Virus record (IMG/VR): IMGVR_UViG_3300042923_000275
Coordinates: 4,059-68,058 of that record
Strand: one strand, 5' to 3'
Source: a virus
Length of the DNA stretch: 64,000 nucleotides
In this document: positions 3,575 to 63,609 of the stretch, piece after piece
How the letters are laid out: every line of letters begins with the position of its first letter
How positions within the stretch are numbered: position 1 is the first letter of the stretch
Notes under the pieces: generated by a model
What the model was told of the DNA's origin: nothing
What the model saw: the letters and a program-made list of their open reading frames with translations, nothing else
The model's database searches: none
Program-made: the position numbers and the translations under genes

Positions 3575-4540
3575 TCATGCCGCGTCACGCACGATGGAAT
3601 ATGCCAAATCCAGCATATCAGCACCACTAATGATCGATTCGAACTTACGTTCATAGGTACGATTCGTGACAGTAGTAGTAGGACCGAATGGACGGTGATC
3701 GGAGAAATCTGCAACAGCATTGATAATACCCCACGCACTACCACGGAGATTACTTAAGTCCGGTCTAGTGTTATACACTTCCTTCAGTAGTGCACGTGAT
3801 TCCTCTACCATCTTGATTCTGATATCTGAGAATTCAGGCTTGATCGGCATCAACTGCGCGATAAAGTTATCTAACCACGTCGGTTGAATCTTCATCATCG
3901 CCAACTTGTCCGCTTCGGCACGCAGGTGATCCATATACGTATCATACATGGCTAACGTACGTCTCGCCTCATCCATCTTACCCTTGATATCTCCGGTGTG
4001 TGTGGTAGACCACATCCTGTCGGCACTTCTGATAGCCATGTTAAGAGTATTATTGCACACTACACGGATCGGGGTTATGAATGCCTTTGCAGAACTCTTA
4101 CCGTCATGACTGTTGGTGAATACTAGGTACGGCTGTATACTATCACCAACGATGATACGTTCCGGCATCCTGGCTAGTAACCATACGGTACGACCACCAT
4201 TTAGGCTTCCGGCTGTCTCGTACGTGATCTCACCACTGCCCATTCCTAGTAATGCATCAGTGAAATCAAATGCATCGGTATTTTGAATGATCTTATATTG
4301 TTTCGACACGATACCGAACACGGCATTGTCTGTGTTACGGGTGTTCGCCAGATACCCAGGGATTTCTTCATATTGTCTCTCGATTCCGCAATATAGATGT
4401 ATGGGCTTCTGCTCCACCATCCAATCTAAACCAGCATTATGTAATGCCTCTTCAGATGTCGGCGCGGAGTCGACACTCACGCCAAGACCATGCCATGGAA
4501 CTTCTCTAACATAGAACATTGTCTCAACATTAGCCGCCAT
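3575..4540 (-). CDS. DUF932-family (phage/plasmid-like, TIGR03299-type) protein
   Basis: MAANVETMFYVREVPWHGLG, YETAGSL..G, NSHDG, TPIRVVCNNTL motifs. Confidence 0.85.
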   Translation of the reverse strand: MAANVETMFYVREVPWHGLGVSVDSAPTSEEALHNAGLDWMVEQKPIHLYCGIERQYEEIPGYLANTRNTDNAVFGIVSKQYKIIQNTDAFDFTDALLGMGSGEITYETAGSLNGGRTVWLLARMPERIIVGDSIQPYLVFTNSHDGKSSAKAFITPIRVVCNNTLNMAIRSADRMWSTTHTGDIKGKMDEARRTLAMYDTYMDHLRAEADKLAMMKIQPTWLDNFIAQLMPIKPEFSDIRIKMVEESRALLKEVYNTRPDLSNLRGSAWGIINAVADFSDHRPFGPTTTVTNRTYERKFESIISGADMLDLAYSIVRDAA

Positions 4541-4730: not shown

Positions 4731-5049
4731 CGTCCTCGCCTCCATCATGTATATTGTCCTCGCCTCCATCATGTATATTGTCCTCGCCTCCATCATGTAT
4801 ATCATCGTTCCACTTCTCTATTTTAACCATGCGTTCCGGGACACTAACTTGTATTCTATTATCGTCCACTGTGGCGGAATACTCAAAGGTTATACGGTCT
4901 CCTGTCTCATCGTAATTTGTAACATTATCGAATTGCTCACGTTCCCTGGTAGCAATATACATTATTTCAATATGATCATACGAATTACTTTCCGGAGTTA
5001 ATAGAACCGCAGGATAACGCACCTTCATGACACACCCCCTCCGATACAC
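4720..5049 (-). CDS. hypothetical protein ending in (IHDGGED)x3
   Basis: ORF track; overlaps the thyX end; the tandem repeat encodes its tail. Confidence 0.5.
   Translation of the reverse strand: MYRRGCVMKVRYPAVLLTPESNSYDHIEIMYIATREREQFDNVTNYDETGDRITFEYSATVDDNRIQVSVPERMVKIEKWNDDIHDGGEDNIHDGGEDNIHDGGEDDVQ
4732..4802. repeat. 24-bp tandem repeat x3
   Basis: GTCCTCGCCTCCATCATGTATATT at 4732, 4756 and 4780 (third copy 23 nt). Confidence 0.95.
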
Positions 5050-5656
5050 AATGCGGCCCAGCCTTCTGGAACAGAGCAGGTGCTACTTCCTTTACCTGAC
5101 GTAGCATCTCATTAGCCATATTCCTAATCTCCCATTGAGCGCGACTACAGCACCGCTTGGAGAAGAAATGCAGTAATTCCCTGGCATTCATGGTTATGAT
5201 AATACGTGTCTCGGTGGCATTGGTCATAACATACCTGGCATCTTCCTTTGGGATGCCGAGCGACACCAATTCACGATATGCTTTATCGATTCTCGTACTG
5301 ATATCCTCGAAAACACGTCGTGCCTTCTGATTGATAAAGATAGATGGAGGGGTAATAATGTCCTTGTTGGCACTATCTACGTATCGTTGTGATTGTTGTG
5401 AGTATGATGCGACACGGTGACGTACTAGCTGATGAGACAGTACACGTGATACACCGTCAACAGCAAAGGTAAATGACGCATGTTCAAATGTCGAGAGATG
5501 TCCCATAGATGCGACACGGGTTACTAAACCAGTAACCTGCTCATCGGACATTGTGTCCAAAAGTTCCTTCGCGGTGGAAGGAGAGTAACATAGTCGCGCT
5601 GATATCGCGACAGCACGTTCTGGATTTGGCGTATGAGATAATAATACTACGTTCAA
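4985..5656 (-). CDS. thyX: FAD-dependent thymidylate synthase
   Basis: GHLSTFEH, RHRVASYSQQSQRYV, EDARYV and AQWEIR motifs; TTG start overlaps the upstream TGA. Confidence 0.95.
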   Translation of the reverse strand: MNVVLLSHTPNPERAVAISARLCYSPSTAKELLDTMSDEQVTGLVTRVASMGHLSTFEHASFTFAVDGVSRVLSHQLVRHRVASYSQQSQRYVDSANKDIITPPSIFINQKARRVFEDISTRIDKAYRELVSLGIPKEDARYVMTNATETRIIITMNARELLHFFSKRCCSRAQWEIRNMANEMLRQVKEVAPALFQKAGPHCVSEGVCHEGALSCGSINSGK

Positions 5657-6069
5657 GATACCACCCCATTCATATTTTTGATTATGTAATGACACGCGTG
5701 GATAGGATTTCGGAATACTACGTCAGCCAATGCCTTAATATATACCGGATGTTTCTCCCATGGTGATACGACGAGCAGTATCTTGTCGAATTTGCTGGCG
5801 ATCTCCATCTCGATCGGTGTTCCAATAGAAATACTGTCGGCATCAAAGATTAGCAGAACCACATCGCATTGGGATATGGCATAATCATTGATGTTCTTGA
5901 TCGTACGCTCGGCATCACCACCGTACGCGAATGCTTTGGTAGGGTTGTATACCGTAATACCGCTGCGACTCAACATACTGACCAAATCGTTTCTCCTCTT
6001 AACTACGTCGGGGTTGGCTAGGTCGATAGGGCCACCTAAATAAACGCTAGTAACTGGCTTACACAACAA
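5653..6069 (-). CDS. nucleoside 2-deoxyribosyltransferase / nucleotide N-glycosidase-like protein
   Basis: VYLGGPI...YNP...D..AI..CD...SIGTPIE pattern. Confidence 0.75.
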   Translation of the reverse strand: MLCKPVTSVYLGGPIDLANPDVVKRRNDLVSMLSRSGITVYNPTKAFAYGGDAERTIKNINDYAISQCDVVLLIFDADSISIGTPIEMEIASKFDKILLVVSPWEKHPVYIKALADVVFRNPIHACHYIIKNMNGVVS

Positions 6070-33085: not shown

Positions 33086-35662
33086 TCACCATCCATACGA
33101 TATTTTATTGGTTCCTATAAATGCTTCCACGGCTGACACAAACGATGTTGTTACCGATATCATACATTGTGTCATTATCTCTACTTCCTCCTCTCCTGTG
33201 TGTACCAATATGTTCACTACTGTATTTCCTGTGCTACATTCACATTCGTGTTTGAGTGCGGCCAATGTCATCAGGTGTGGTGTTAATCCTAGATCGATCA
33301 ATACGGATCTACAGTATACGTTATTTCTTTCTATCACGGCTATGTCAGACATTACCAATCCCGTTTTACCCATATATTCGTTATACCTTCCTTTAATTAC
33401 CACCATCTTTCCTTCTGCGTTCTTAATGATGCTATCGTACTGCCTAAATACGTCGCTAAACACGGTGCAATCGAAGCTAGTGTTCTCTGATTCTACGGTA
33501 ATGAACGCCATCTGTCCTTTCTTCGACTGTTGTACACGTACCGTTTTTAGGATGCCAGCGATGCCCTTATCGTAATCGCCGAATTGATCGAATCGAGTAG
33601 TCGCGCCGAATCTACGAATATGTTCATCGGCTGTACTGAATGGCGTGCCGGATACATAGAAATTCAATAACTCTTTCTCGTGTTGGATCTTGTCCTCTTG
33701 ACACATAGGTTTGATGATATCTGGTTGTATATACTTCTTATTATATCTCGATTCCAACTCATCTATGAGGTATGCTCTATCATCAAATATGTCAAATGCC
33801 CCAGATAATATTAGTGTCTTCTTCGCCGCTGAGTTACACTCCTTGGGAGCCATACGGTCGCAAAAATCCTCGAAACTCCTAAAGTAGCCACTCGCATTTC
33901 TTTCCTTAATAATTGCCTGTACCGTCTTTCCGCCTATGCCCTTGATACCAGTGAGACCAAACCGCACTGCGAAGTTATCAACCTGGAACCCAGTATAACT
34001 GTAGTTTATATGTGGCGGTAATAGTGGTATTCCCAATGATTTGATCTCGCCTATCACGTTTGCCAGTTTATCATTTGTGTCTAAGAATGAGTTCGCCTCG
34101 GCGGACATATATTCCATTGGATAATAACACTTCAGATATGCGGTACGATATGTAATGAGTGCATATGCCGTACTATGTGATTTGTTGAAGCCGTATCGTG
34201 CGAATGTCTCTATCTGGTGCGCTACGTCCTCCACGATCGACTTATCGTATCTCTTCTCAATAGCCCTATCTATGAATTTCCCTTTCTCCTTTGCCATTAG
34301 ATCCTTGTCTTTTTTACCCATTGCCTTTCTCAGTTTGTCTGCTTCTGCGGCTGAATATCCAGCCATCACCATCGATATTCTCATGACCTGTTCCTGATAT
34401 AGTATTACTCCCCATGTGGGTTTCAATATTAGCTCCAGATCAGGATGTTGGTAAGTAACCACCTCACGGCCTAACTTGCGGTCGATATATATCTTATCCA
34501 TCTTCGCATCTAATGGGCCGGGACGATATAGAGCCAATAATGCAATTATATCATTGAATGATGATATGTGCATCCTCTTTACTACCGATGTGATACCCTG
34601 ACCCTCTAATTGAAATACCGATCTGGTCTTACCATTTCTAAGCATCTTATATACGTTAGGATCTTCTAGATTTATATCCTGTATAGTGAAATTTGGTTCA
34701 TGTTTCCTTATTGTCTTGACAGTCTCTGCTATTACTGATAGTGTACGCAAACCTAGTATGTCCATTTTTAGTAATCCAGCTTCTTCTGCATCATGTTTGT
34801 CTAGCTGAACAGTCATATGTGATGAGTCTACTTCTGCGGCATCTTTCTTTCCTTTGGCGAACAACGGTACCAGAGTAGCCACTGGGACATCGCAGATTAT
34901 GACACCTGCGGCATGCTTCGATTCATTACGGTGCAATCCCTCTAGTTTCAGACATGTTTCCCAGAATCTTGGGTAACGCGAATTGATGTTGTCTACCAAT
35001 TTACGGAAATCTGCGTATTGCTCGTAGATATCGGTGATAGTGGTATCGTCATCCTCCTCCTCTTCATTAGGAGTGACATCCTTTATGCGGTTTACTTCAT
35101 CCCACCCTATCTTCATTACTTTTCCGACGTTCTCTAGCAATGAATTGCGTTTCAGAGTACCGTATGTCATAATCTGTGCCACGTAATCAGAACCATATCT
35201 CTGGATTATGTAATCGACTACTTCTCCTCTGCGGTACTGACAGAAGTCAATATCAACATCAGGCATCTCTGGGCGCTCAGGATTCAGAAAACGCTCGAAG
35301 ATCAGGTCATATTCTAGAGGGTCAAATTCCGTTATTCCTAAACAGTATGCCACCACCGCACCGCCAGCAGAGCCACGTCCAGGACCGACTGGTATATCAC
35401 GGAGCCTAGCGGCATTGATCAGGTCCCATACGATCAGAAAATACGAACTGAAGCCCATGTCGTCTATGACTTTTAGCTCGTAGTCTATCTTATCTCTTAG
35501 TTGGGTAGTTATTGTACCATATAATCTTGATGCCCCCTTGTATGTGAGGTATCTTAGATAATTCGTCGGATTGTGCATACTTCCCATATCACCAGTAGGT
35601 ACTTGAGAGATGTTACAACACACATCCTTGGCGTCCTGTTGTTGTAAGTATGTCTCACTCAT
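33086..35662 (-). CDS. dnaE: DNA polymerase III alpha (DnaE), catalytic/C-terminal part
   Basis: GPGRGSAGG, FERFLNPER..MPDVDIDF, KMDILGL, YQEQVM, FNKSH, OB fold. Confidence 0.92.
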   Translation of the reverse strand: MSETYLQQQDAKDVCCNISQVPTGDMGSMHNPTNYLRYLTYKGASRLYGTITTQLRDKIDYELKVIDDMGFSSYFLIVWDLINAARLRDIPVGPGRGSAGGAVVAYCLGITEFDPLEYDLIFERFLNPERPEMPDVDIDFCQYRRGEVVDYIIQRYGSDYVAQIMTYGTLKRNSLLENVGKVMKIGWDEVNRIKDVTPNEEEEDDDTTITDIYEQYADFRKLVDNINSRYPRFWETCLKLEGLHRNESKHAAGVIICDVPVATLVPLFAKGKKDAAEVDSSHMTVQLDKHDAEEAGLLKMDILGLRTLSVIAETVKTIRKHEPNFTIQDINLEDPNVYKMLRNGKTRSVFQLEGQGITSVVKRMHISSFNDIIALLALYRPGPLDAKMDKIYIDRKLGREVVTYQHPDLELILKPTWGVILYQEQVMRISMVMAGYSAAEADKLRKAMGKKDKDLMAKEKGKFIDRAIEKRYDKSIVEDVAHQIETFARYGFNKSHSTAYALITYRTAYLKCYYPMEYMSAEANSFLDTNDKLANVIGEIKSLGIPLLPPHINYSYTGFQVDNFAVRFGLTGIKGIGGKTVQAIIKERNASGYFRSFEDFCDRMAPKECNSAAKKTLILSGAFDIFDDRAYLIDELESRYNKKYIQPDIIKPMCQEDKIQHEKELLNFYVSGTPFSTADEHIRRFGATTRFDQFGDYDKGIAGILKTVRVQQSKKGQMAFITVESENTSFDCTVFSDVFRQYDSIIKNAEGKMVVIKGRYNEYMGKTGLVMSDIAVIERNNVYCRSVLIDLGLTPHLMTLAALKHECECSTGNTVVNILVHTGEEEVEIMTQCMISVTTSFVSAVEAFIGTNKISYGW

Positions 35663-36582
35663 ATTGCCGCTCCGTTCCGCTGGTTGATTAGCCAAGCGTT
35701 GAAATCATTATCGTCCGTCGGTATCTGGAATTTAGGTAGTCTGATGTTTCCGTATTCTATTATATCGTCATCGCAACTGTCGACTATATGCTGAGTATTC
35801 GATAAATATTCCGGTTTGTAAATCATAGACATTTCCTCTGTGGTTAATAGATGGTAATTCGTACCATCAAACTTGAATTTCCGTGGGTCTACCAGATTCT
35901 GACCTGTACCGATACACAATGCTACATCGTGAGCAAATGCATCCTCAGCGTTCAGGTAGTGAGAATCCTGTGTCGCAATGATTGGTATACCATAGTGCTT
36001 AGAGAAATATTCATATATGTCAGATACCATTTTCTCCTGTGGTAGGTCGTGATTCTGCACCTCTAGGTAGAAATCACTACCAAATCTCGATGCATATTTC
36101 TCTATAACCGCCTTACATCCATCTATATCCTCTTTGAATATAAGATTCGCAAATTTACTACCTATACATGCCGTGGTTACTATGATGTTATTACCGTCCA
36201 TTCCGAATAGTAACTCTTCGTCTATGCGCGGCTTGTAGTAAAATCCCTCTTTGAATCCTAATGAACACATCTTAATTAGTTGCTCATATCCCCTACGATT
36301 CTTGGCAAGAACTATCAGGTGATGATATACTGATTCACCCTTCTTCGATGTCTTATCGCTCATACTAATCGGTGCCACATAGAACTCACAGCCGATAATA
36401 TGTTTGATACCAGCTTCTCTACATTCCTTATTAACCTTCACTAGAGAATACATGTTACCATGTTCGGTTACAGCTACTGCTTTGTGCCCTATAGATTTGA
36501 GTTTATTTACCATTTCCTCTACCTTTATTGCTCCATCGAGCAGACTGTAGGTAGTATGTACGTGCAAATGCGAAAAATTCAT
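35659..36582 (-). CDS. dnaE: DnaE N-terminal PHP domain encoded as a separate ORF
   Basis: HLHVHT.YSLLDG, TEHG, GCE, KPRID, DSHY. Confidence 0.9.
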   Translation of the reverse strand: MNFSHLHVHTTYSLLDGAIKVEEMVNKLKSIGHKAVAVTEHGNMYSLVKVNKECREAGIKHIIGCEFYVAPISMSDKTSKKGESVYHHLIVLAKNRRGYEQLIKMCSLGFKEGFYYKPRIDEELLFGMDGNNIIVTTACIGSKFANLIFKEDIDGCKAVIEKYASRFGSDFYLEVQNHDLPQEKMVSDIYEYFSKHYGIPIIATQDSHYLNAEDAFAHDVALCIGTGQNLVDPRKFKFDGTNYHLLTTEEMSMIYKPEYLSNTQHIVDSCDDDIIEYGNIRLPKFQIPTDDNDFNAWLINQRNGAAI

Positions 36583-36660: not shown

Positions 36661-37236
36661 TTATTTACCCGACGAACCAAATCCGGTGTCACCACGTTCC
36701 GATTTACTCAGTTCATCTACCTCTTCGATTGGCGGTACACATCTGAAATGAAATATCACTTGCGCGTATCTCTCTCCTGCGATAATCCGTATAGGGACCT
36801 CACCGAGGTTAATCATAACGGCCTTCAGTTCACCACGGTATCCGGTATCGATCGTACCAGTAACGACGTGGAATTTCGGCATGTTTGATTCATCGTTGGC
36901 AAATTTCCTCAGGCGTAGTTTCAGTTTCTCCCATAGGCTATATCGGTTGATCATCGCCCTTAATTCATTATCTTCCCATCTAGATGCACTCGATCTACCC
37001 TCTATAGTAGCCCACAGGTGTTCAGGTATTTCTAATGAGATACCGGTCGATACAGTGCGTCTCTCACCCGGCATTATGATCATATCTTCGGTACACGGTA
37101 GATCGTATCCTACGTCACCGTCTTTCTTGATCTTGATCAGATCATATATTTTGGCCTTCTCGTCCCTCTTCACCTTTACTGGCTTTGCGTTTACTAGCTG
37201 ATACAATGCCTGTATCATTAGTGAGGAATTATCCAT
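36661..37236 (-). CDS. dut: trimeric dUTPase with an insertion
   Basis: GYDL, GRSS, GTIDTGYRGE, ERYAQ, RGDTGFGSSG. Confidence 0.9.
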   Translation of the reverse strand: MDNSSLMIQALYQLVNAKPVKVKRDEKAKIYDLIKIKKDGDVGYDLPCTEDMIIMPGERRTVSTGISLEIPEHLWATIEGRSSASRWEDNELRAMINRYSLWEKLKLRLRKFANDESNMPKFHVVTGTIDTGYRGELKAVMINLGEVPIRIIAGERYAQVIFHFRCVPPIEEVDELSKSERGDTGFGSSGK

Positions 37237-37238
37237 CG

Positions 37239-39122
37239 TTACTTGCCTCCGATATTCTTAAATTTTCTATATACGAAGTCTAATGTACGCCGTGCCTCAC
37301 TCCACTTCGATACCATACTGAAATACCCAATGATTCGTGTAACCCAATCCTGGATTTCGGCTCCGCATTCGGCGCAGGTACCATCATTGCCGACCATAGA
37401 CGAGTGTCCGTTGGCGCAGATACCGAATCCAAAATTGACACCGAGATGTTCGACACCGACTGATGCATGAAACTCAATCATATGTAGCATCTGTGTCTCG
37501 GACATCTTATCCTTGATATTCTGGTGCAATATTCCGCCACCAGATAGCATACTCATAAACTTCCCGGTTAGTACTGCCCTTTTGGTAATCGTGGCATCGA
37601 CAATTAGTGGTATGTATTGATTACTATATAGGTCGTATTTCATTCCATATAGGATTCTGTCGGCCCTTGCCAGCGTAACACACGCACTTTCTCCAGGGAT
37701 TTCTTCGACATTGAAGCTATATCCACTGCGGTTGCTGAACATCGTGGCCTTCATCTCGATGAATTCTAATACCCTAGTGGTAAATTGTTCACCGTCCGGT
37801 GTGAGTATATTATGTCCCATCAGTTCACACATTTCATAGATTCCGGTGATGCCGATGGTGGAAAACAACTGGTTGATGTTGAACCATTCTACTGGCTTAC
37901 TGAAGAATGTTAGGAATCCCTGTCGGATACGACGCGCCAATATTCCATCACGATGAACCATTAACAATTTGTAGCATACTTCCAGCTGGTCACTTAACGC
38001 CATGAAGAACACATCATCACATTTATCCGATAGATGTGCGATTCGTGGCAAATTGAGTGTCACTACGCGGTGTGAACCGATATTCATTCCACCATTACCA
38101 AATGAGTCGGCCCTGAACTTCATCTGCTCAAAGCTACTAGAATATCTACAGCATGTGGCTAATTTCGCGCCATCATTGATGTAAATATTAAAGCAACCCT
38201 TCTTGGCATTGTTCATCGCCGTCCACGACAGAAATTCGCGGTCCATGATTCTTCTATCTTCGTCCACCATGAGATTAATAGTCATGACCGGGAACCTATA
38301 TGGTAGGCCAGTTCTCGGATCTCCGCTTGAGAACCATTCGCCTATGATCTGTTGTACGTGCATTATGTATTCAAGATCGGCCTTCTCGTCGTTAGGCCAA
38401 TACTTATCTCCGAACAACTTCTCCAAGTTGTATTTATCGAAGAGGCTGACATTAGTAAATGGTGATTCACCACTTCTGAATGGTTTGTTCATTGAGTGGA
38501 CGAATCCCTGGAACAGGTTAACTATCTCTTTATCTGACAATGATTCCTGTTTGGCGAAGTACGCTAGGTTGATTAACATATCCGATGGTACGGTAGCACC
38601 AGCAAATTCTTGAGACATCTTATGGGTACATTCCTTGACTTGCTCCATGAAACTCTTTGCTGTCTTCGGTGGTAAATCGTGTAATTGCCCATATGGATTA
38701 CCGGATTGCATGATCATGTCCGTAGAGAATGCCCAACAATATGGTACCTGGATCTTAATGCCTGACGGATCATGGAATTTCACATCGCCCGACCAGATAC
38801 TATACATCAATTCCGTTGCAGTAGCCTCACCATACATCTTCTTTGCATATCTCCACAACAGATAATACCCTTCAGCCTTCATGACTCCCTTTGCTATTTC
38901 CGATGCGTATACAGCTGGTGATTTGTATTCGTTGGAATTTGCATTGGCATCGACAGTCATATCAGATATGTTCGACCGGAAGAAGCTGTGTGACATAGCA
39001 CCTATGTCCATCTTGTCTCTAGATATTCCCTCTAGAGATAATAGTTGTTTACCTGCTGGTGTGGCCTCAAATGCGTCATACGCTCTGTCAAACCCTGGTT
39101 CAAATGTGAGAGTTATATCCAT
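37239..39122 (-). CDS. nrdD: anaerobic (class III) ribonucleotide reductase
   Basis: TCCR finger loop, GSHRVVTLNLPR, EEIPGES, CxxxH...CxxC, TRIIGYF glycyl loop. Confidence 0.92.
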   Translation of the reverse strand: MDITLTFEPGFDRAYDAFEATPAGKQLLSLEGISRDKMDIGAMSHSFFRSNISDMTVDANANSNEYKSPAVYASEIAKGVMKAEGYYLLWRYAKKMYGEATATELMYSIWSGDVKFHDPSGIKIQVPYCWAFSTDMIMQSGNPYGQLHDLPPKTAKSFMEQVKECTHKMSQEFAGATVPSDMLINLAYFAKQESLSDKEIVNLFQGFVHSMNKPFRSGESPFTNVSLFDKYNLEKLFGDKYWPNDEKADLEYIMHVQQIIGEWFSSGDPRTGLPYRFPVMTINLMVDEDRRIMDREFLSWTAMNNAKKGCFNIYINDGAKLATCCRYSSSFEQMKFRADSFGNGGMNIGSHRVVTLNLPRIAHLSDKCDDVFFMALSDQLEVCYKLLMVHRDGILARRIRQGFLTFFSKPVEWFNINQLFSTIGITGIYEMCELMGHNILTPDGEQFTTRVLEFIEMKATMFSNRSGYSFNVEEIPGESACVTLARADRILYGMKYDLYSNQYIPLIVDATITKRAVLTGKFMSMLSGGGILHQNIKDKMSETQMLHMIEFHASVGVEHLGVNFGFGICANGHSSMVGNDGTCAECGAEIQDWVTRIIGYFSMVSKWSEARRTLDFVYRKFKNIGGK

Positions 39123-39565
39123 TTACCGTCATCCCCCTTGACATAATACTTCTGATTGCTAGACGCTAAAGGTCCCTCCTTTTTTCTTAACTTATCAATA
39201 TATGCGCCTGTTTTGATTACATCGCACACATTTTTCACTTTATTTGGTATTTGACTTATGGTACTACCTGTATATAGCCACACCTTTTTATTGGTATCCT
39301 TTGCCGCTTGAGCTATTTCTATCAACGCATCTACTTGTTCCATAGGCTCTCCACCTGTTAATACCACGCACGTCGCGACCTCATTCCTGAACATGTCTGC
39401 TATGACGAAATTGACATCGACCTCAGTGCCACTATCCTTTGGTTGTAATGATTCGTTATGGCACCCAGTACATCCTCTACTACATCCAGCAAAGAAAATT
39501 GTGTGGGCCACATTATCTGGCCCACCATTTATCATATCACAATCGTCTATACCACCTATGCGCAT
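39113..39565 (-). CDS. nrdG: class III RNR activating radical-SAM protein
   Basis: GCSRGCTGCHN, TGGEP, WLYTG, SSNQ. Confidence 0.92.
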   Translation of the reverse strand: MRIGGIDDCDMINGGPDNVAHTIFFAGCSRGCTGCHNESLQPKDSGTEVDVNFVIADMFRNEVATCVVLTGGEPMEQVDALIEIAQAAKDTNKKVWLYTGSTISQIPNKVKNVCDVIKTGAYIDKLRKKEGPLASSNQKYYVKGDDGKWI

Positions 39566-40081
39566 TTATATACCCCCATACACATTACATAGATTCACTA
39601 TTGACTTTGCCATAGATTCAGATGTACTCGCGTGTCTCACTATAATATTATAGTTGAGGAAACCACGCAGGGCCAACTCTACTATCCTATGCGTATCGGT
39701 GTAGTAGTCGTTCAACCTATGTAATATTATATCGATACTATCATCTGCCCGTCCACGATCCGATAGTCGTGATATCGACACGTCGCTGTTGACAACTAAA
39801 CAAAATATATCACATTTTCCTACCCAATGCGACAACAGTATCGCCTGTTCTATCGTCCTCGGAAATCCGTCCAGCACGAAACCATTAGGCGAGTGATTAT
39901 CAATGGCACTTTTTATTTGCCGTCGCATTGCAGATTCGTCAGCCATCCGACCGATCGGGGTATTCAGTGATCTTGAGATATCTCCCGACGATATATATGA
40001 TAGGCCGCACTCATTTGCTATTATTTTGCCAACGGTGCTCTTCCCGGAACCGGGAGGACCAACCAATACTATCTTCATCAT
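39566..40081 (-). CDS. adk: adenylate-kinase-like NMP kinase
   Basis: GPPGSGKST, SSGD, LDGFPRT..QA, RGRADD. Confidence 0.85.
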   Translation of the reverse strand: MMKIVLVGPPGSGKSTVGKIIANECGLSYISSGDISRSLNTPIGRMADESAMRRQIKSAIDNHSPNGFVLDGFPRTIEQAILLSHWVGKCDIFCLVVNSDVSISRLSDRGRADDSIDIILHRLNDYYTDTHRIVELALRGFLNYNIIVRHASTSESMAKSIVNLCNVYGGI

Positions 40082-40344
40082 TTTATCTTCTCCTCCAGTA
40101 TGCATATCGCTCCGCCAACCGTTACCCCGTATTTGATGACTACGCACTCATCCTCGATGTCTCTGACGAATAGGTAGTTATCATCTTCCTCTTTCAATAA
40201 CTCCATTCGGTTTATAATGCCATCGAACATAACGTTTGCTATCTCTTTGACACATTCCTTCTGTGTGTCCGACTCATTGAATAATCTCTGACTGTTTCTG
40301 AGGTATTTGATCAGGCCACACACTGATATCTGCGATCTGGGCAT
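40078..40344 (-). CDS. hypothetical protein
   Basis: ORF track; GAGGA SD; stop coupled to the adk start. Confidence 0.6.
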   Translation of the reverse strand: MPRSQISVCGLIKYLRNSQRLFNESDTQKECVKEIANVMFDGIINRMELLKEEDDNYLFVRDIEDECVVIKYGVTVGGAICILEEKIK

Positions 40345-42931: not shown

Positions 42932-43574
42932 TAAAATGCCTCCTAGCCAAATTTTCTAGACGAGCATTCTCTTTCCGTTGCTCCCATCGTGCCATTATAG
43001 ATATTTTCTCTATCATACCCATATTGCTATCGCTCTGTTTGATTATGGGGTTAACCGCTTTGTTATCTAATTCGGACATACGCCTCATGTGTGCTTGCTT
43101 CTCCGACCATTCTCTCTGACATATTGCATACACATACGGTATCGTATATACACCAGCCTCTTTTGCTATCTTGACCGCCCTCGGTAGTTGCGATGCCATA
43201 CCGTCACTACATTTCGACAATTCTATCATTTGTAGCAACGCATCATAATTGTAATCTCCACATAATAGGCTGTTCTGCAAATATTCAAATACGGTGCCGA
43301 ACATGGTATCTAATATGTTCGGTGGATTGCTACTGCGTTTATTCGTAATTCTTCTGAGCGCCGGATAGTGATATGTGAAATCTGCATACCTATCTAGCTT
43401 GTCAGGCTTCGCCTTAGATATCATGTCCTCCATCATCTTTAATATCGGGTTTGGGTAATATGTTAGTATAGCCTGTTCCATGTGTATGGCCTCATTGGTT
43501 GATATATCTGCCCTCTCAGGCCATTTGCTATATAGTAACCTCGCTATCTTCCTGGCGTCCCCAGATAGATACAT
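42924..43574 (-). CDS. hypothetical replication-region protein
   Basis: 216-aa ORF coupled to its neighbours. Confidence 0.7.
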   Translation of the reverse strand: MYLSGDARKIARLLYSKWPERADISTNEAIHMEQAILTYYPNPILKMMEDMISKAKPDKLDRYADFTYHYPALRRITNKRSSNPPNILDTMFGTVFEYLQNSLLCGDYNYDALLQMIELSKCSDGMASQLPRAVKIAKEAGVYTIPYVYAICQREWSEKQAHMRRMSELDNKAVNPIIKQSDSNMGMIEKISIMARWEQRKENARLENLARRHFNA

Positions 43575-44149
43575 CAGTCCTTCACCTCGAACAGTTTGAT
43601 GCCAGCAGATTTGATGATCTGTATAGCCATTTCGGACGGTGTTACATCATTACTACTGTGTATCAGTTTAGTGTCGATGATAGCCTTATCTGCATATTCA
43701 TCATAGTATTTATTATTAATATCGAGTATGTTTCTTAATGACTGTTTTTCCAATGGGTTCTGATTAACTCTCGTTCTGTGCCTGATTTGCAATGTCTCCG
43801 GGTGTGCAACCAGCACGAATTGGATCGCGCCATACATCGATGCCAGTTTCTCGAATACTGATAGGCCACCAGATTCATATGACTCAGGGAACATCAGCTT
43901 CTCGGTTGTGACGAATCTATCGAATATTAAGGTTCTGTCCGAGTCGTGGTTGTGAAAGTGTTCCATGATCTTCAGTACCGACGCGTATTGTTTGTGCATC
44001 ATGTTACCACGCTCCGCCATCGACATACCAGTGTCCGTCGGCAATCCGGATAGCTTAATCAGAGTATGATATGATATCATGTCCTGTAATGCACGTACTA
44101 CCGATGTCTTTCCAACCAATTCTCCACCCTCAATAATAACGATAGGCAT
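43574..44149 (-). CDS. thymidylate-kinase-like dNMP kinase
   Basis: IIEGGELVGKTS P-loop, IFDRF. Confidence 0.75.
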   Translation of the reverse strand: MPIVIIEGGELVGKTSVVRALQDMISYHTLIKLSGLPTDTGMSMAERGNMMHKQYASVLKIMEHFHNHDSDRTLIFDRFVTTEKLMFPESYESGGLSVFEKLASMYGAIQFVLVAHPETLQIRHRTRVNQNPLEKQSLRNILDINNKYYDEYADKAIIDTKLIHSSNDVTPSEMAIQIIKSAGIKLFEVKD

Positions 44150-49783: not shown

Positions 49784-50860
49784 TTACGGTAATTCTACCT
49801 TATATTGACGGAGATCAACGATCTCGCTATGTTTGGGTCCAGTACCAATCATAGTTACTGGCACGCCGCTTTCGTCTTCGACTTTTTTAATGAAGTGTTT
49901 TGTTTCCTGAGATAACAAGTTGTAGTCGGTGACACCATAATCGCGGTAATTGATATAATTCACGAAATTCATTGCGATCTGTGTCGGCCTGTTGATCATT
50001 ACCATATATTGTAATCGATCGAAGTCGAATTCGAAAATTCTGCGTACCTTCTGAGTGACAGTAGTCCTCTCCAATAATGGTTTCGGTGAGCCTGACATCG
50101 CAGTAATTTCACCCCATGTGAGTTCTTTGCCACCCATCGGACCGGACCATCCGATCTGTTCGCCACGTTCATTGAATTGATTGCCGACGCGGATTGGATG
50201 ACACCTCATTACGGCAATTACGTGATCGATAGCCTGAATTGGAACGCCGCAATCTGCTACAACCTGACCAACATGTGTCTGTCGAGATGTCGTGTACGGA
50301 TATGCCATTCCGTAATTGATATCGAGGTCAAAACCCTGTGACCCCTCGATCATTACCATGTGATTTTGTTCGATATGGTTATTGATCTCATACTCAGTAT
50401 CAGACAAATACAGACGCAATGATTCGACATCGCGTGCAAGCATTACATTTCCCCCACGCATGATTTTGTCGGCTTGTGCCGCACCGCAGCCCTTTTGAGT
50501 CGAAGAAATATGACCAAGTGCTTCCGCTTCGATTTTCTTGTGTTTATCATTGATAATCATAGCACGAGGGTGAATATGTAGCCTGTGACCGCACAAGAAT
50601 TCACTGAGTTCGCGCTCAAGAATACTCAGTGTAATACCAGCGCCTGGACCGATGAACAATTCTGTACGTCCATTCACTACTGCCTGTGGGATTTGCTGTA
50701 CCATAAATGGTTTTCCTTCATCGCTCACCCATGTATGACCAGCATTGGTATAGAAGTTACAGATGGCGGCATCATAGTTATCCTTGATCGCCATATATCC
50801 GACAAATTTGCCTTTGCCCTCGGACCCTGCCTGACCACCAAATAATACATTAGTTGACAA
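49784..50860 (-). CDS. purZ: PurZ-type 2-aminoadenylosuccinate synthetase (PurA family)
   Basis: GSEGKG (Ser at the PurA catalytic Asp), NAGHT, PIRVGN, TTVT..RR, NFVN in place of TKLD; TTG start after GGAGGT. Confidence 0.75.
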   Translation of the reverse strand: MSTNVLFGGQAGSEGKGKFVGYMAIKDNYDAAICNFYTNAGHTWVSDEGKPFMVQQIPQAVVNGRTELFIGPGAGITLSILERELSEFLCGHRLHIHPRAMIINDKHKKIEAEALGHISSTQKGCGAAQADKIMRGGNVMLARDVESLRLYLSDTEYEINNHIEQNHMVMIEGSQGFDLDINYGMAYPYTTSRQTHVGQVVADCGVPIQAIDHVIAVMRCHPIRVGNQFNERGEQIGWSGPMGGKELTWGEITAMSGSPKPLLERTTVTQKVRRIFEFDFDRLQYMVMINRPTQIAMNFVNYINYRDYGVTDYNLLSQETKHFIKKVEDESGVPVTMIGTGPKHSEIVDLRQYKVELP

Positions 50861-50909
50861 TGGAACAACCTCCAATATTCTGAATTTCCTGCGATTATTA
50901 TATCGTCTG

Positions 50910-61471: not shown

Positions 61472-61565
61472 TTGGTCCGTTAGCTCTTTAGTCCTTTAGT
61501 AGACGAAAGCCTTTGGTCCTTTTGAGTGTTAGTCCTTTAGTCGCATGAAGGGTTTAGTCCTTTAG
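61472..61565. repeat. 12-bp direct repeats (TTAGTCCTTTAG) with a 41-bp period
   Basis: Exact copies at 61488, 61529 and 61554; variants at 61472 and 61513. Confidence 0.8.
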
Positions 61566-61725: not shown

Positions 61726-62736
61726 CTACTCGGTGGCGCGTCGGGCGTGGTCTGCGGCTTGGCGGGCGTGGTCGGCTGTCCTCCTTCCTCTCTCCTCGGC
61801 GTCGTGCCCGTCGTCGGTGGTCTCGCGTGCGTGGGCCTGTGCTCTGGCGGCCTCGGCGTGGGCGCGTGCGGCGTGGATGTGTGCTCGGCGTGTCTTGGCC
61901 TCCTCGGCGGCCTCGCTGGCCCTCTCTGCCGCCGCGCTGGCTTGGTCGGCGGCCTCGCTGGTGGCCTCGCCTCCGTCCCTGCCGCCCGCCTCCTGCTCGG
62001 CTTGGGCCTCGGTGGCGGCCCGGTTGGCGGCGTGGTGTGCGGCGGTGGCGGCCTCCTCGGCTGTGTCCTCGCTCTCGTCCCGCTCGGCGTCGTCGGTCCG
62101 CTCGGCGTCGGCTCGTCCTGCGGCGGTCTCGTGCGCGTGGGCGGCCCGTCTGCTGGCCTCGGCGGCCTCGTCCCGTGTCGCGTCGCTGGCGGCCTGTGCG
62201 GCCCTGCGTGCTCGGCGGTCCGGGTTGGCCTCGTCGGCGTTGTCGCTGGCGGCCTGTGCGGCTCCGGTGGCGGCCTCCTCGGCTGTCCGGGCGGCGTCCC
62301 GTGCGGCGTCTGCCTCGGTGGTCGCCTCCTCGGCCTCGTCGGCGGCCTCCTCGGCCCGGCGGGTGGCGTGGCTGGCGGCCTGGGCGGCCCGGTGTGCGCT
62401 GGCGGCGGCCCGGTGTGCGTGGGCCGCCCACCCGTCGCTGGCGGCGGCCTCGGCCTCGCTGGCGGCCTCGTGGGCCTCGGCGGCGGCCTCGTGGGCGCGG
62501 TTGGCGGCCCTGTGGGCGCTGGCTGTGTCCGGGTGCTCGGCGTCGCCGTGTGCGCGTGCGGCCTCGGCGTGTCGGGTGGCGGCGGTGCGGTGTGCCGTGG
62601 CGGCCTCCTCGTGTGCTCCTCGGCTGGTGTCGGCGGCCTCGTGGGCCTCGCGTGCGGCCTCGCTGGCCTGTCTCGCCGCCTCGGTGGCGGCTGTGGCCCC
62701 GTGGCTGGCTCTCTCGGCTGTCTGTGCGTGTGTCGT
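61726..62736 (-). CDS. nearly U-free Ala/Glu/Arg/His-rich protein (336 aa, putative ACG start; not in track)
   Basis: GAGAGGAG SD, 9 nt, then ACG ACA; GCC/GAG-periodic frame; only T-containing codons are TGG, ATC and the TAG stop. Confidence 0.7.
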   Translation of the reverse strand, partial: TTHAQTAERASHGATAATEAARQASEAAREAHEAADTSRGAHEEAATAHRTAATRHAEAARAHGDAEHPDTASAHRAANRAHEAAAEAHEAASEAEAAASDGWAAHAHRAAASAHRAAQAASHATRRAEEAADEAEEATTEADAARDAARTAEEAATGAAQAASDNADEANPDRRARRAAQAASDATRDEAAEASRRAAHAHETAAGRADAERTDDAERDESEDTAEEAATAAHHAANRAATEAQAEQEAGGRDGGEATSEAADQASAAAERASEAAEEAKTRRAHIHAARAHAEAARAQAHARETTDDGHDAEERGRRTADHARQAADHARRATE

Positions 62737-62812
62737 GGCGTCCCTCTCCTCTCGCGCCGTCCGGTGTCCCCGGCTCGGCGGCGCGCCTTGGCTGTGGCGG
62801 CGCGCTGGCCCC

Positions 62813-62892: not shown

Positions 62893-63609
62893 CTACCGCG
62901 CCCCGGCGCGGGCGGCGGCCCTCTGTGCGCGGGCGGCGGCGCGGTGGGCGTCGGCGGCCTCGGCGTGGGCTGTCGCGGCGTCCTCCTCGGCGGCCTCGTC
63001 TGCGGCCTCGCTGGTGGCCTGTGCGGCGCGGCTGGCGTCCTGCGCGGTCCGCCCTGCCTCCTCGGCGGCCTCGGCGGCCCGCTCGGCGGCGGCCTGTGCG
63101 GCGTCCTCCCTGCCCTCGGCGCGGGCGCGGGCGGCGTCGCTGGCGGCGGCCTCGGCTCTGTCTGCGGCGTCCTCGGCGGCGCGGCGGGCGGTCTGTGCGG
63201 CGTCGAACGGGTGTTCGGTGGCGCGGGCGGCTCGCTCGGCCTCCTCGGCGGCGCGGGTGGCCTGGGTCTCGGCGGCCTCGGCGTGTCCTGCGGCGGCCTC
63301 GGCGTCCTCCGCGCTGGTCGCTCTGGCGGCCTCGGCGGCGGTCTCTCTGGCGGCGGCGGCGGCCTGTGCGGCCCTCTGTGCGCGGGCGGCCCCTGCGCTG
63401 GTGGGTGCGGCCTCGGCGGCTTGGGCCGCGCGCTGGCTGGCGGCCTCTGCCCTGTCTGCGGCCTCGGCGGCGTCCTTCGCGGCTCCGGTCCTGCGGGCAT
63501 CCTCGGCTGGCTGGCTGGCCTCGCGGGCCGCCCGGTCGGCTGTGGCGCGGGCCTCTCTGGCCTCGGCTCTGCGCTGGGCGGCGGTGGGGCGGCTGTCGGT
63601 CTGTGTCAC
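62893..63609 (-). CDS. nearly U-free Ala/Glu/Arg-rich protein (238 aa, GTG start)
   Basis: GAGAGGAG SD, 9 nt, then GTG ACA; T only in GTG, one GAT, TTC (HPF) and TAG. Confidence 0.75.
   Translation of the reverse strand: MTQTDSRPTAAQRRAEAREARATADRAAREASQPAEDARRTGAAKDAAEAADRAEAASQRAAQAAEAAPTSAGAARAQRAAQAAAAARETAAEAARATSAEDAEAAAGHAEAAETQATRAAEEAERAARATEHPFDAAQTARRAAEDAADRAEAAASDAARARAEGREDAAQAAAERAAEAAEEAGRTAQDASRAAQATSEAADEAAEEDAATAHAEAADAHRAAARAQRAAARAGAR

Follow-up and report, generated by a model that had tools for sequence, protein, structure and literature searches.

The window analysed here is a 64,000-nucleotide stretch of viral DNA, bases 4059-68058 of the 68,058-bp IMG/VR record IMGVR_UViG_3300042923_000275, a record with end repeats that is rated 100% complete; the end 'repeat' is a 127-nt assembly overlap. 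On its - strand the window carries a gene for an adenylosuccinate synthetase (PurA) homologue with serine in place of the catalytic aspartate. The best explanation of the sequence is that the gene encodes a PurZ-type N6-succino-2-amino-2'-deoxyadenylate synthetase belonging to a third, deep-branching lineage. Judging by its gene content, the DNA of the phage is probably modified. With a probability of about 0.6, the enzyme uses dGMP, aspartate and ATP to make the precursor of 2-amino-2'-deoxyadenosine monophosphate (dZMP), dATP is cleared by Dut-like and NDT-like enzymes, and the genome carries 2-aminoadenine (Z). Behind this reading stand the residue signature, the position in the trees and a gene content that is conserved in relatives.

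The synthetase gene and its residues

49784..50860, - strand: PurZ-family (Ser-type adenylosuccinate-synthetase-like) gene, assigned from motifs, Pfam, PHROG and PDB matches and trees

The reading frame is open on the - strand from 50875 to 49784, corresponding to 363 amino acids (aa). A TTG codon at 50860, located 8 nt past a GGAGG sequence, heads a 358-aa version and is a likelier start than the frame limit at 50875; residue numbers below refer to the 363-aa frame. Judged by sequence similarity, the protein is a clear homologue of adenylosuccinate synthetase, far beyond chance. It matched the Pfam family PF00709 (Adenylsucc_synt) with an E-value of 2.6e-44 (152 bits, cut-off 27) and phrog_1211, '2-aminooxy adenylosuccinate synthetase', with an E-value of 2.1e-66. 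Sequence matches in PDB were obtained to P. horikoshii PurA (6e-57), phiVC8 PurZ (4e-43), S-2L PurZ (1e-29) and PurZ0 7VF6 (4.5e-24).

A preliminary description of this DNA had placed the motifs GSEGKG, PIRV, TTVT..RR and NFVN at 49784-50860 and had taken them to indicate a PurZ-group enzyme rather than PurA, with features of both PurZ and PurZ0. All of the motifs are present (G17-S18-E19-G20-K21-G22, P227-I228-R229-V230, T271-T272-V273-T274 followed by R278-R279, and N303-F304-V305-N306-Y307) and fit the 358-aa gene, and both assignments held in the alignments and trees. The position of the PurA residue Asp13 was Asp in 5 of 5 aligned PurA rows and Ser in 19 of 19 rows of the PurZ group. Where the PurA references have PTRV/TTRV and GT(V/T)TGR, the PurZ group has PIRV/PIRI/PIRA and, in most rows, TTVT. 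The site that binds the base of the nucleoside triphosphate (NTP) reads TKLD/DKLD in PurA, LDQ in the PurZ0 proteins of Wayne and Goodman, and NF[CA][NQ]Y in PurZ. The window protein thus keeps neither the catalytic Asp13 of PurA nor its (T/D)KLD guanine-specificity motif, having Ser18 and NFVN instead. Nor does it have a guanine-nucleotide pocket of the archaeal PurA type, since its NFVNY takes the place of LDQ in Wayne and Goodman and of LDK in archaeal PurA. Its mixture of features consists of a GSEGKG P-loop like that of PurZ0 and archaeal enzymes and an ATP pocket of the PurZ type (F304, Y307). According to section 24 of PMC12884076, the Asp13 position is Ser in 100% of 147 phage sequences and Asp13 is 99% conserved across the PurA group.

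Seven of the 12 residues of VpPurZ flagged by metaGPA are kept in the window protein (S14, I34, P233, W252, T262, F295 and Y298), while F12 (here Ala), P144, Y244, G256 and S273 are changed. Four of the five VpPurZ residues with a described role have counterparts (Ser18, Thr271, Phe304 and Tyr307), the roles being those given in section 8 of bioRxiv 10.1101/2025.10.22.683976. The residues F304 and Y307 match F295 and Y298 of VpPurZ, which stack the adenine of ATP. PurZ0 is said to use GTP and PurZ to use ATP, a finding attributed to Tong and co-workers in 2023. The motifs fit PurZ as the ATP user, because the LDQ of the Wayne and Goodman PurZ0 proteins resembles the archaeal LDK. In section 24 of PMC12884076, PurZ0 and PurZ are stated to prefer 'ATP and GTP, respectively'; the introduction of bioRxiv 10.1101/2025.10.22.683976 presents PurZ as the ATP user, which implies that PurZ0 is the GTP user.

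Phylogenetic placement

A search of 5.8 billion proteins returned 408 relatives of the PurZ-like protein, of which the best 120 were listed. The pattern G-S-x-G-K-G was found in 112 of these 120 (84 GSEGKG, 26 GSCGKG and 2 GSSGKG); at least two of the eight without a match (P0002 and P0006) start downstream of the motif. Four of the relatives listed, P0099, P0111, P0114 and P0115 (about 510 aa), are fusions of a PurZ-like and a NUDIX domain. These fusions join a pyrophosphatase to the synthetase, which is the same pairing of functions as that of PurZ with MazZ/DUF550.

The preliminary description had proposed a phylogeny with PurA, PurZ and PurZ0, and two trees were inferred. The quick tree contained 88 rows: the window protein, 23 of the 120 relatives, 13 phage references, 25 of 29 loci from cellular genomes (the fragments or split genes L028, L037, L043 and L045 were omitted), 3 canonical PurA proteins from the same genomes and 23 archaeal PurA proteins. 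For the careful tree of 55 rows, 33 of these were dropped, namely L016 and L030, which had long branches, 14 copies from gut metagenome-assembled genomes (MAGs), P0034, P0049, P0082, P0113 and 13 archaeal PurA proteins.

All Ser-type proteins formed a PurZ super-clade, with support of 100/100 in the careful tree and 100 in the Shimodaira-Hasegawa-like approximate likelihood ratio test (SH-aLRT) of the quick tree; long PurA and archaeal short PurA fell outside it. Within the super-clade, the careful tree recovered both crown PurZ (VP5, Bm1, S-2L, Bhz20, Kokobel2 and PMBT28) and crown PurZ0 (Ghobes, Wayne, Hiyaa, Goodman and Parvaparticeps) at 100/100, each to the exclusion of the window protein. 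The latter was placed in a third group (83/96) that was sister to PurZ (82/53), and the two trees were concordant on its placement. By these sequence comparisons, the third lineage is a mostly uncultured, Bacillota-linked and weakly supported sister of PurZ. Its position near PurZ, in neither of the crown groups, accounts for the mixed features of the window protein. Immediately before the Ser, the rows shown for the third clade have A, V or I, PurZ has F, and PurZ0 and PurA have F, Y or W.

Replication and nucleotide-pool genes

On the - strand near the PurZ-like gene is a block that encodes a sigma factor, the DnaE core, a PHP-domain open reading frame (ORF), a Dut-like protein, NrdD, NrdG, an Adk-like kinase, a primase-helicase, a UvsW-like helicase, RNase H, RecA, a PD-(D/E)XK nuclease and an ATP ligase. 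The genes that bear on replication and nucleotide pools are the following.

4985..5695, - strand: flavin-dependent thymidylate synthase ThyX, adjoining the NDT-like gene (domain search)
5653..6069, - strand: NDT-superfamily gene, like the DmtZ domain of PurZ0 phages (Pfam Nuc_deoxyri_tr2, 6e-8)
33086..35695, - strand: DnaE-type DNA polymerase III alpha core with polymerase, fingers, HhH and OB parts (domain search; in 5 of 5 records)
35659..36582, - strand: PHP-domain ORF, the split N-terminal part of DnaE (domain search; split likewise in vB_BpsS-140)
36661..37236, - strand: trimeric dUTPase-family gene, a candidate pyrophosphatase (Pfam dUTPase, 1.4e-24)
37239-39122, - strand: anaerobic ribonucleotide reductase NrdD (domain search)
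39113-39565, - strand: NrdG, the activase of NrdD (domain search)
39566..40147, - strand: short adenylate-kinase-like P-loop kinase (Pfam ADK, 7e-18; PDB Adk 2CDN, 3e-17)

We compared the record with four relatives (G046-G049), which are 92-100% complete and have PurZ-like proteins that are 43-45% identical. The DnaE replicase named in the preliminary description was present in all five records, and PolA/DpoZ was found in none of them. The PHP and DnaE-core ORFs overlap by 37 nt (33086-36582), and the paper on vB_BpsS-140 describes the same split as dnaE_1/dnaE_2. Searches of the five records for DatZ-type proteins (YfbR-like and HD_3), for PF04447 (DUF550/MazZ type), for MazG and for NUDIX each gave 0 of 5, while PF04447 was positive in 3 of 3 known PurZ phages. 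The companion set of crown PurZ, as represented by PF12917, PF13023, PF04447, PF03819 and PF00476, was thus found in none of the five. Likewise, tblastn searches of vB_BpsS-140 and G046-G049 yielded no homologues of S-2L DatZ or MazZ, of Ghobes or Wayne PolA, of Ghobes PurB or of Wayne DUF5664. No phage PurB was found in the phage of the window.

The Dut-like gene is the sole dNTP-pyrophosphatase family found in the record among those searched (YfbR-like, HD_3, PF04447, MazG and NUDIX), and all five related viral records searched (G046-G050), as well as vB_BpsS-140, contain a dUTPase-family gene. Its product is 29% identical to Ghobes gp55 and 31% identical to the C-terminal half of Wayne gp52, and has a 29-aa insert between the GRSS and G-x-ID-x-GYRGE motifs that is not seen in vB_BpsS-140, Ghobes gp55 or Wayne gp52. 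By analogy with PurZ0 phages, it is a candidate DutZ-like pyrophosphatase acting on dATP, dGTP and dUTP.

Over 93 aa, the NDT-like protein shared 33% identity with Wayne gp52 in the N-terminal (DmtZ) half of the latter (E = 1.7e-7); its best PDB match was the CMP N-glycosidase 4JEN (E = 0.0035). Among 50,697 phage records it matched 63 only, from 61 Arthrobacter phages, one Streptomyces phage and one Bacillus phage. In 30 rows among the matches listed, the matching part was the N-terminal, DmtZ-type part of an NDT-Dut fusion whose annotation is dUTPase or dCTP deaminase. Of the phage names listed, at least 13 recur in the PurZ match lists, and in Streptomyces phage Keanu the PurA-like, NDT-Dut and PurB-like genes are located side by side. 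Section 21 of PMC12884076 describes DmtZ as hydrolysing dAMP and making dZMP. The Adk-like protein, with homologues in 4 of 5 relatives (vB_BpsS-140 and G046-G049), is a candidate kinase for (d)ZMP/(d)AMP.

The closest cultured relative by PurZ-like protein is Bacillus phage vB_BpsS-140 (MH884512; 49% identity over 95% of the query), which is deposited as DSM 29700 (PMC6483233). It has homologues of the PHP, DnaE, primase-helicase, UvsW, RecA, Adk, Dut, Cas4-like nuclease and NDT proteins, and the genes for the Cas4-like protein, purA, recA, uvsW, primase-helicase, adk, dut, sigma and split dnaE occur in the same order. It differs in that its 'purA' product falls in another sub-branch of the third clade and in that no match to NrdD or ThyX was obtained in the 38 kb examined. 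None of the four papers found that name this phage mentions Z, and the words adenylosuccinate, aminoadenine and diaminopurine have 0 occurrences in its genome-analysis paper.

Proposed pathway and alternatives

Taken together, these genes suggest the following route, of which we infer each enzymatic step as well as the base content of the DNA. The PurZ-like enzyme would join dGMP and aspartate to form the succinylated precursor, with ATP as the phosphate donor, as its residues suggest. Host PurB would strip fumarate to give dZMP, which the Adk-like phage kinase and host NDK would convert to dZTP. By analogy with PurZ0 phages, the Dut-like pyrophosphatase would remove dATP and supply dGMP from dGTP, and the DmtZ-like NDT protein would destroy dAMP. 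The DnaE-type polymerase would then incorporate what the pool offers, such that A is largely or wholly replaced by 2-aminoadenine.

Several points weigh against this route. The data for the phage consist of assembled contigs only. The tree support is modest both for the third clade and for its sisterhood with PurZ. Of the residues that fit the 2-amino group, S18 and T271 are present and the counterpart of VpPurZ F12 is A16; F12 is one of the three residues said to do so in bioRxiv 10.1101/2025.10.22.683976. The Dut-like protein carries every ordinary dUTPase motif and its best phage matches after vB_BpsS-140 are Bacillus-phage dUTPases. It is at least as close to these ordinary enzymes as to the Ghobes and Wayne Dut proteins, and judged by its sequence the gene may be a plain dUTPase. 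The link between the NDT-like protein and DmtZ is low-scoring (E-values from 5e-5 to 7e-3 across the 50,697 phage records), and tblastn detected the gene in just 2 of 5 relatives (vB_BpsS-140 and G046-G049).

Ser/Cys-type members of the third clade also occur in cellular genomes. A Ser-type copy exists beside a canonical PurA in Heliobacterium chlorum, Halobacillus seohaensis and a haloarchaeal MAG, and in a Shapirobacteria MAG (L044) and an uncultured Bacilli MAG (L021) the sole PF00709 gene is of the Ser/Cys type. No PurB or other Lyase_1 was found in these two MAGs, which may be incomplete. The L044 gene has housekeeping genes as neighbours, lying between lon, era and obg. The cellular copies belong to the GSCGKG sub-branch and not to that of the window protein. 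Given the cellular copies, the chemistry of the third clade is not settled. The preliminary description had held that the signature implies Z or an otherwise modified adenine: the PurZ-group signature itself stands, and with Ser-type copies in cells it is no proof of Z when taken alone. A side observation concerns Heliobacterium chlorum (L018, 9004-15284), where a DUF7002 gene and a 1,316-aa SIR2_2-domain gene come after the Ser-type copy; phage replication genes of the window's kind were not detected near it.

The restriction data on vB_BpsS-140 provide mixed evidence for Z. Its DNA alone of its set resisted DraI (PMC6483233), and there are 17 DraI sites (TTTAAA) in 38 kb of its genome. The same DNA was cut by EcoRI (PMC6483233), of which the 38 kb contain 19 sites. 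For PCR DNA with 98% dZ, complete digestion is shown in PMC12944874 for 4 of the 18 enzymes presented, namely ApoI, BstYI, BsaI and SalI, and not for EcoRI.

If the enzyme does make Z nucleotides, the substitution of the genome could nevertheless be partial, or dZTP could be made for another end such as manipulation of the nucleotide pool, a reading that we regard as unlikely. It is suggested by the lack of a dedicated dATPase and of a Z-selective polymerase, as seen in the 0 of 5 records with DatZ-type HD, DUF550, MazG, NUDIX or PolA, and the digestion of vB_BpsS-140 DNA by EcoRI but not DraI (PMC6483233) could fit incomplete replacement. However, PurZ0 phages attain Z-DNA with a Dut-like enzyme that replaces DatZ and MazZ (PMC12884076, sections 20 and 25), and S-2L employs a non-selective PrimPol (PMC8065100). 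Neither gap therefore excludes full substitution.

Somewhat less likely still, the Ser-type enzyme of the third clade takes another substrate (dIMP, GMP, dXMP or similar) and yields some other purine nucleotide, or an adenine that is modified in another way. The agreement of Ser18, Thr271 and the ATP-pocket residues with PurZ argues against such a substrate, as do the DmtZ-like and Dut-like companions, which are those of Z phages. In its favour are the replacement of the aromatic residue that precedes the Ser by A, V or I in the rows shown for the third clade, which alters the purine pocket, and the cellular members in the two small MAGs where PurB/Lyase_1 was not found.

Least probable of all is an ordinary PurA-like auxiliary metabolic gene that converts IMP to adenylosuccinate and boosts adenine nucleotides during infection, since, although the best solved-structure match is P. 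horikoshii PurA (6e-57), the vB_BpsS-140 homologue is labelled purA in GenBank and the Shapirobacteria and Bacilli MAGs hold the Ser/Cys type as their sole PF00709 homologue, the protein lies inside the PurZ super-clade at 100/100, NFVNY replaces the guanine-specifying TKLD/DKLD, and the catalytic Asp, 99% conserved in PurA (PMC12884076, section 24), is replaced by Ser.

Host and habitat

The segment 54001-64000 of the window was present at 0.99-1.00 of sampled words in three soil-metagenome runs; these runs may be the source of the DNA and are not independent. The named cellular matches of RecA, at 45-47% identity, were from Clostridia or Clostridiales, and relatives of the PurZ-like protein were found in a Bacillus phage and in records of Heliobacterium, Halobacillus and Sporomusa. 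No link to a host was found and no integrase was seen, and scans of the window with Rfam and for tRNAs were null. An anaerobic Firmicute host, as put forward in the preliminary description, is plausible: NrdD/NrdG, the Clostridia RecA matches and the Bacillota relatives speak for it, while the origin of the DNA from soil metagenomes and the failure to find a host link do not.

Other features of the window

The window also encodes a DUF932 protein (3575-4540), an Amidase_2 lysin domain and sigma factors. A 191-aa protein at 43574-44149 gave a weak match to a thymidylate-kinase PHROG only (6.8e-5), and no homologue of it was found in the five relatives.

The segment 61,580-63,884 is almost free of A on the + strand, with 10 A in 2,305 nt and about 80% GC within a phage of 45% GC. 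A further A-less block is located just beyond the record junction, at 345-760 of the record (L005). The - strand of the stretch holds T-free paralogues rich in Ala, Glu and Arg, at about 62893-63608 and 61726-62760, and a T-free ORF rich in Lys, Pro, Arg and His lies at 333-768 of the record. The few A's that do occur coincide exactly with TAG stop codons, with one GTG start that follows a GGAG, and with isolated codons for W, I, F and V. The paralogue at about 61726-62760 is without an in-frame NTG start and has ACG in the place of the GTG of the other paralogue. Three copies of the 11-mer TTAGTCCTTTA at 61,488-61,565 of the window and one inverted copy at 322-332 of the record flank the A-free block, with no other copy in the 68 kb. 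Two strong sigma-70-like promoters (10/12 and 9/12 matches) at 889-983 of the record, - strand, are aimed at the T-free ORFs.

We rejected an assembly chimera as the origin of the stretch, since a 67,920-bp contig is identical and contigs from two further runs span the border. We also rejected an ordinary phage gene altered by A-to-G hypermutation: W, I, F and V codons are preserved in phase within the Ala-rich frame, TAG stops stand exactly at the rare A's, and T makes up only about 19% of the + strand. A search of four relatives did not turn up the A-free stretch. In two runs, the unitig depth of the segment 61,683-63,970 exceeded that of the remaining genome by a factor of about 1.7-2.0 (1709-2037 versus 1020 in X3, and 730-838 versus 465 in X2), and the doubled depth may represent a long physical terminal repeat that was collapsed in the assembly.

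Implications

Z-genome biology has so far comprised two enzyme lineages with fixed partner sets. A third lineage would imply that the host range of Z-DNA is wider, with members of 30-53% GC that include a cultured Bacillus phage and many uncultured relatives. It would also imply that a C-family replicase is able to copy Z-DNA and that the origin of the ATP pocket predates the PurZ crown group. The cellular Ser-type copies caution against scoring every Ser-type PurA homologue as a Z phage. The DraI resistance of vB_BpsS-140 is so far unexplained, and the phage, being cultured, allows direct testing (PMC6483233).

A more far-reaching and doubtful idea is that the phage has arrived at a 2-aminoadenine genome in a third way, independent of the two known ones. 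Such a solution would combine the PurZ lineage of Bacillota-type phages with pool control by Dut-like, DmtZ-like and Adk-like enzymes, with C-family (DnaE) replication, and with a stretch of about 2.3 kb at about twofold depth, possibly a terminal repeat, bearing early genes whose transcribed strand holds no A/Z. If so, this would be the first replicase other than PolA and PrimPol to work on Z-DNA, and the host polymerase would never meet Z on the entering DNA, owing to the A/Z-free transcribed strand.

Comparison with known systems

Phage PurZ proteins are described in section 24 of PMC12884076 as two monophyletic groups, and in the same paper PurZ pairs with DatZ, MazZ/DUF550 and DpoZ-2, and PurZ0 with DutZ, DmtZ and DpoZ-1. 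According to PMC10201439, no polymerase family other than PolA is known to have shifted towards Z. A literature search, which did not extend to supplements, found no work linking PurZ or diaminopurine with DnaE, Firmicutes or Bacillus phage. Members of the third clade may already be counted somewhere in the literature, and the supplementary trees and tables of PMC12884076 may already place vB_BpsS-140.

The window protein shares with crown PurZ (phiVC8/VP5, S-2L, Acinetobacter and Salmonella PMBT28) the Ser in place of Asp13, PIRV, TTVT, W254 and the NFxNY pocket. It is, however, only 31-37% identical to these proteins and lies outside their clade, as its sister in the careful tree. The crown enzymes have GSTGKG in the P-loop and F12 where the window protein has GSEGKG and Ala. 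The window protein also retains a C-terminal part alignable with archaeal PurA; its matches to the PurZ proteins of phiVC8 and S-2L, in contrast, end near residue 310. No DatZ, MazZ/DUF550 or DpoZ partners were found for the gene.

With PurZ0 (Ghobes/Archimedes, PDB 7VF6; Wayne) the phage has in common the GSE-type P-loop and the presence of Dut-like and DmtZ-like NDT genes in the genome. The proteins are about 30% identical and the window protein falls outside the PurZ0 clade, with NFVNY, in place of the archaeal-like LDQ of Wayne and Goodman, at its NTP base site. PurZ0 phages have a PolA DpoZ, whereas the phage of the window has DnaE replication, with its Dut and NDT genes unfused and far from purZ. 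All PurZ0 genomes have dutZ and most have dmtZ; the Dut-family gene of the window is not told apart from ordinary dUTPases, and the similarity of the NDT-like protein to DmtZ is weak but specific. Archaeal short PurA (P. horikoshii 5K7X/2D7U) is of the same length class and aligns over its full length, including the C-terminal region, but has Asp13, PTRV, GTVTGR and LDK and forms a separate clade.

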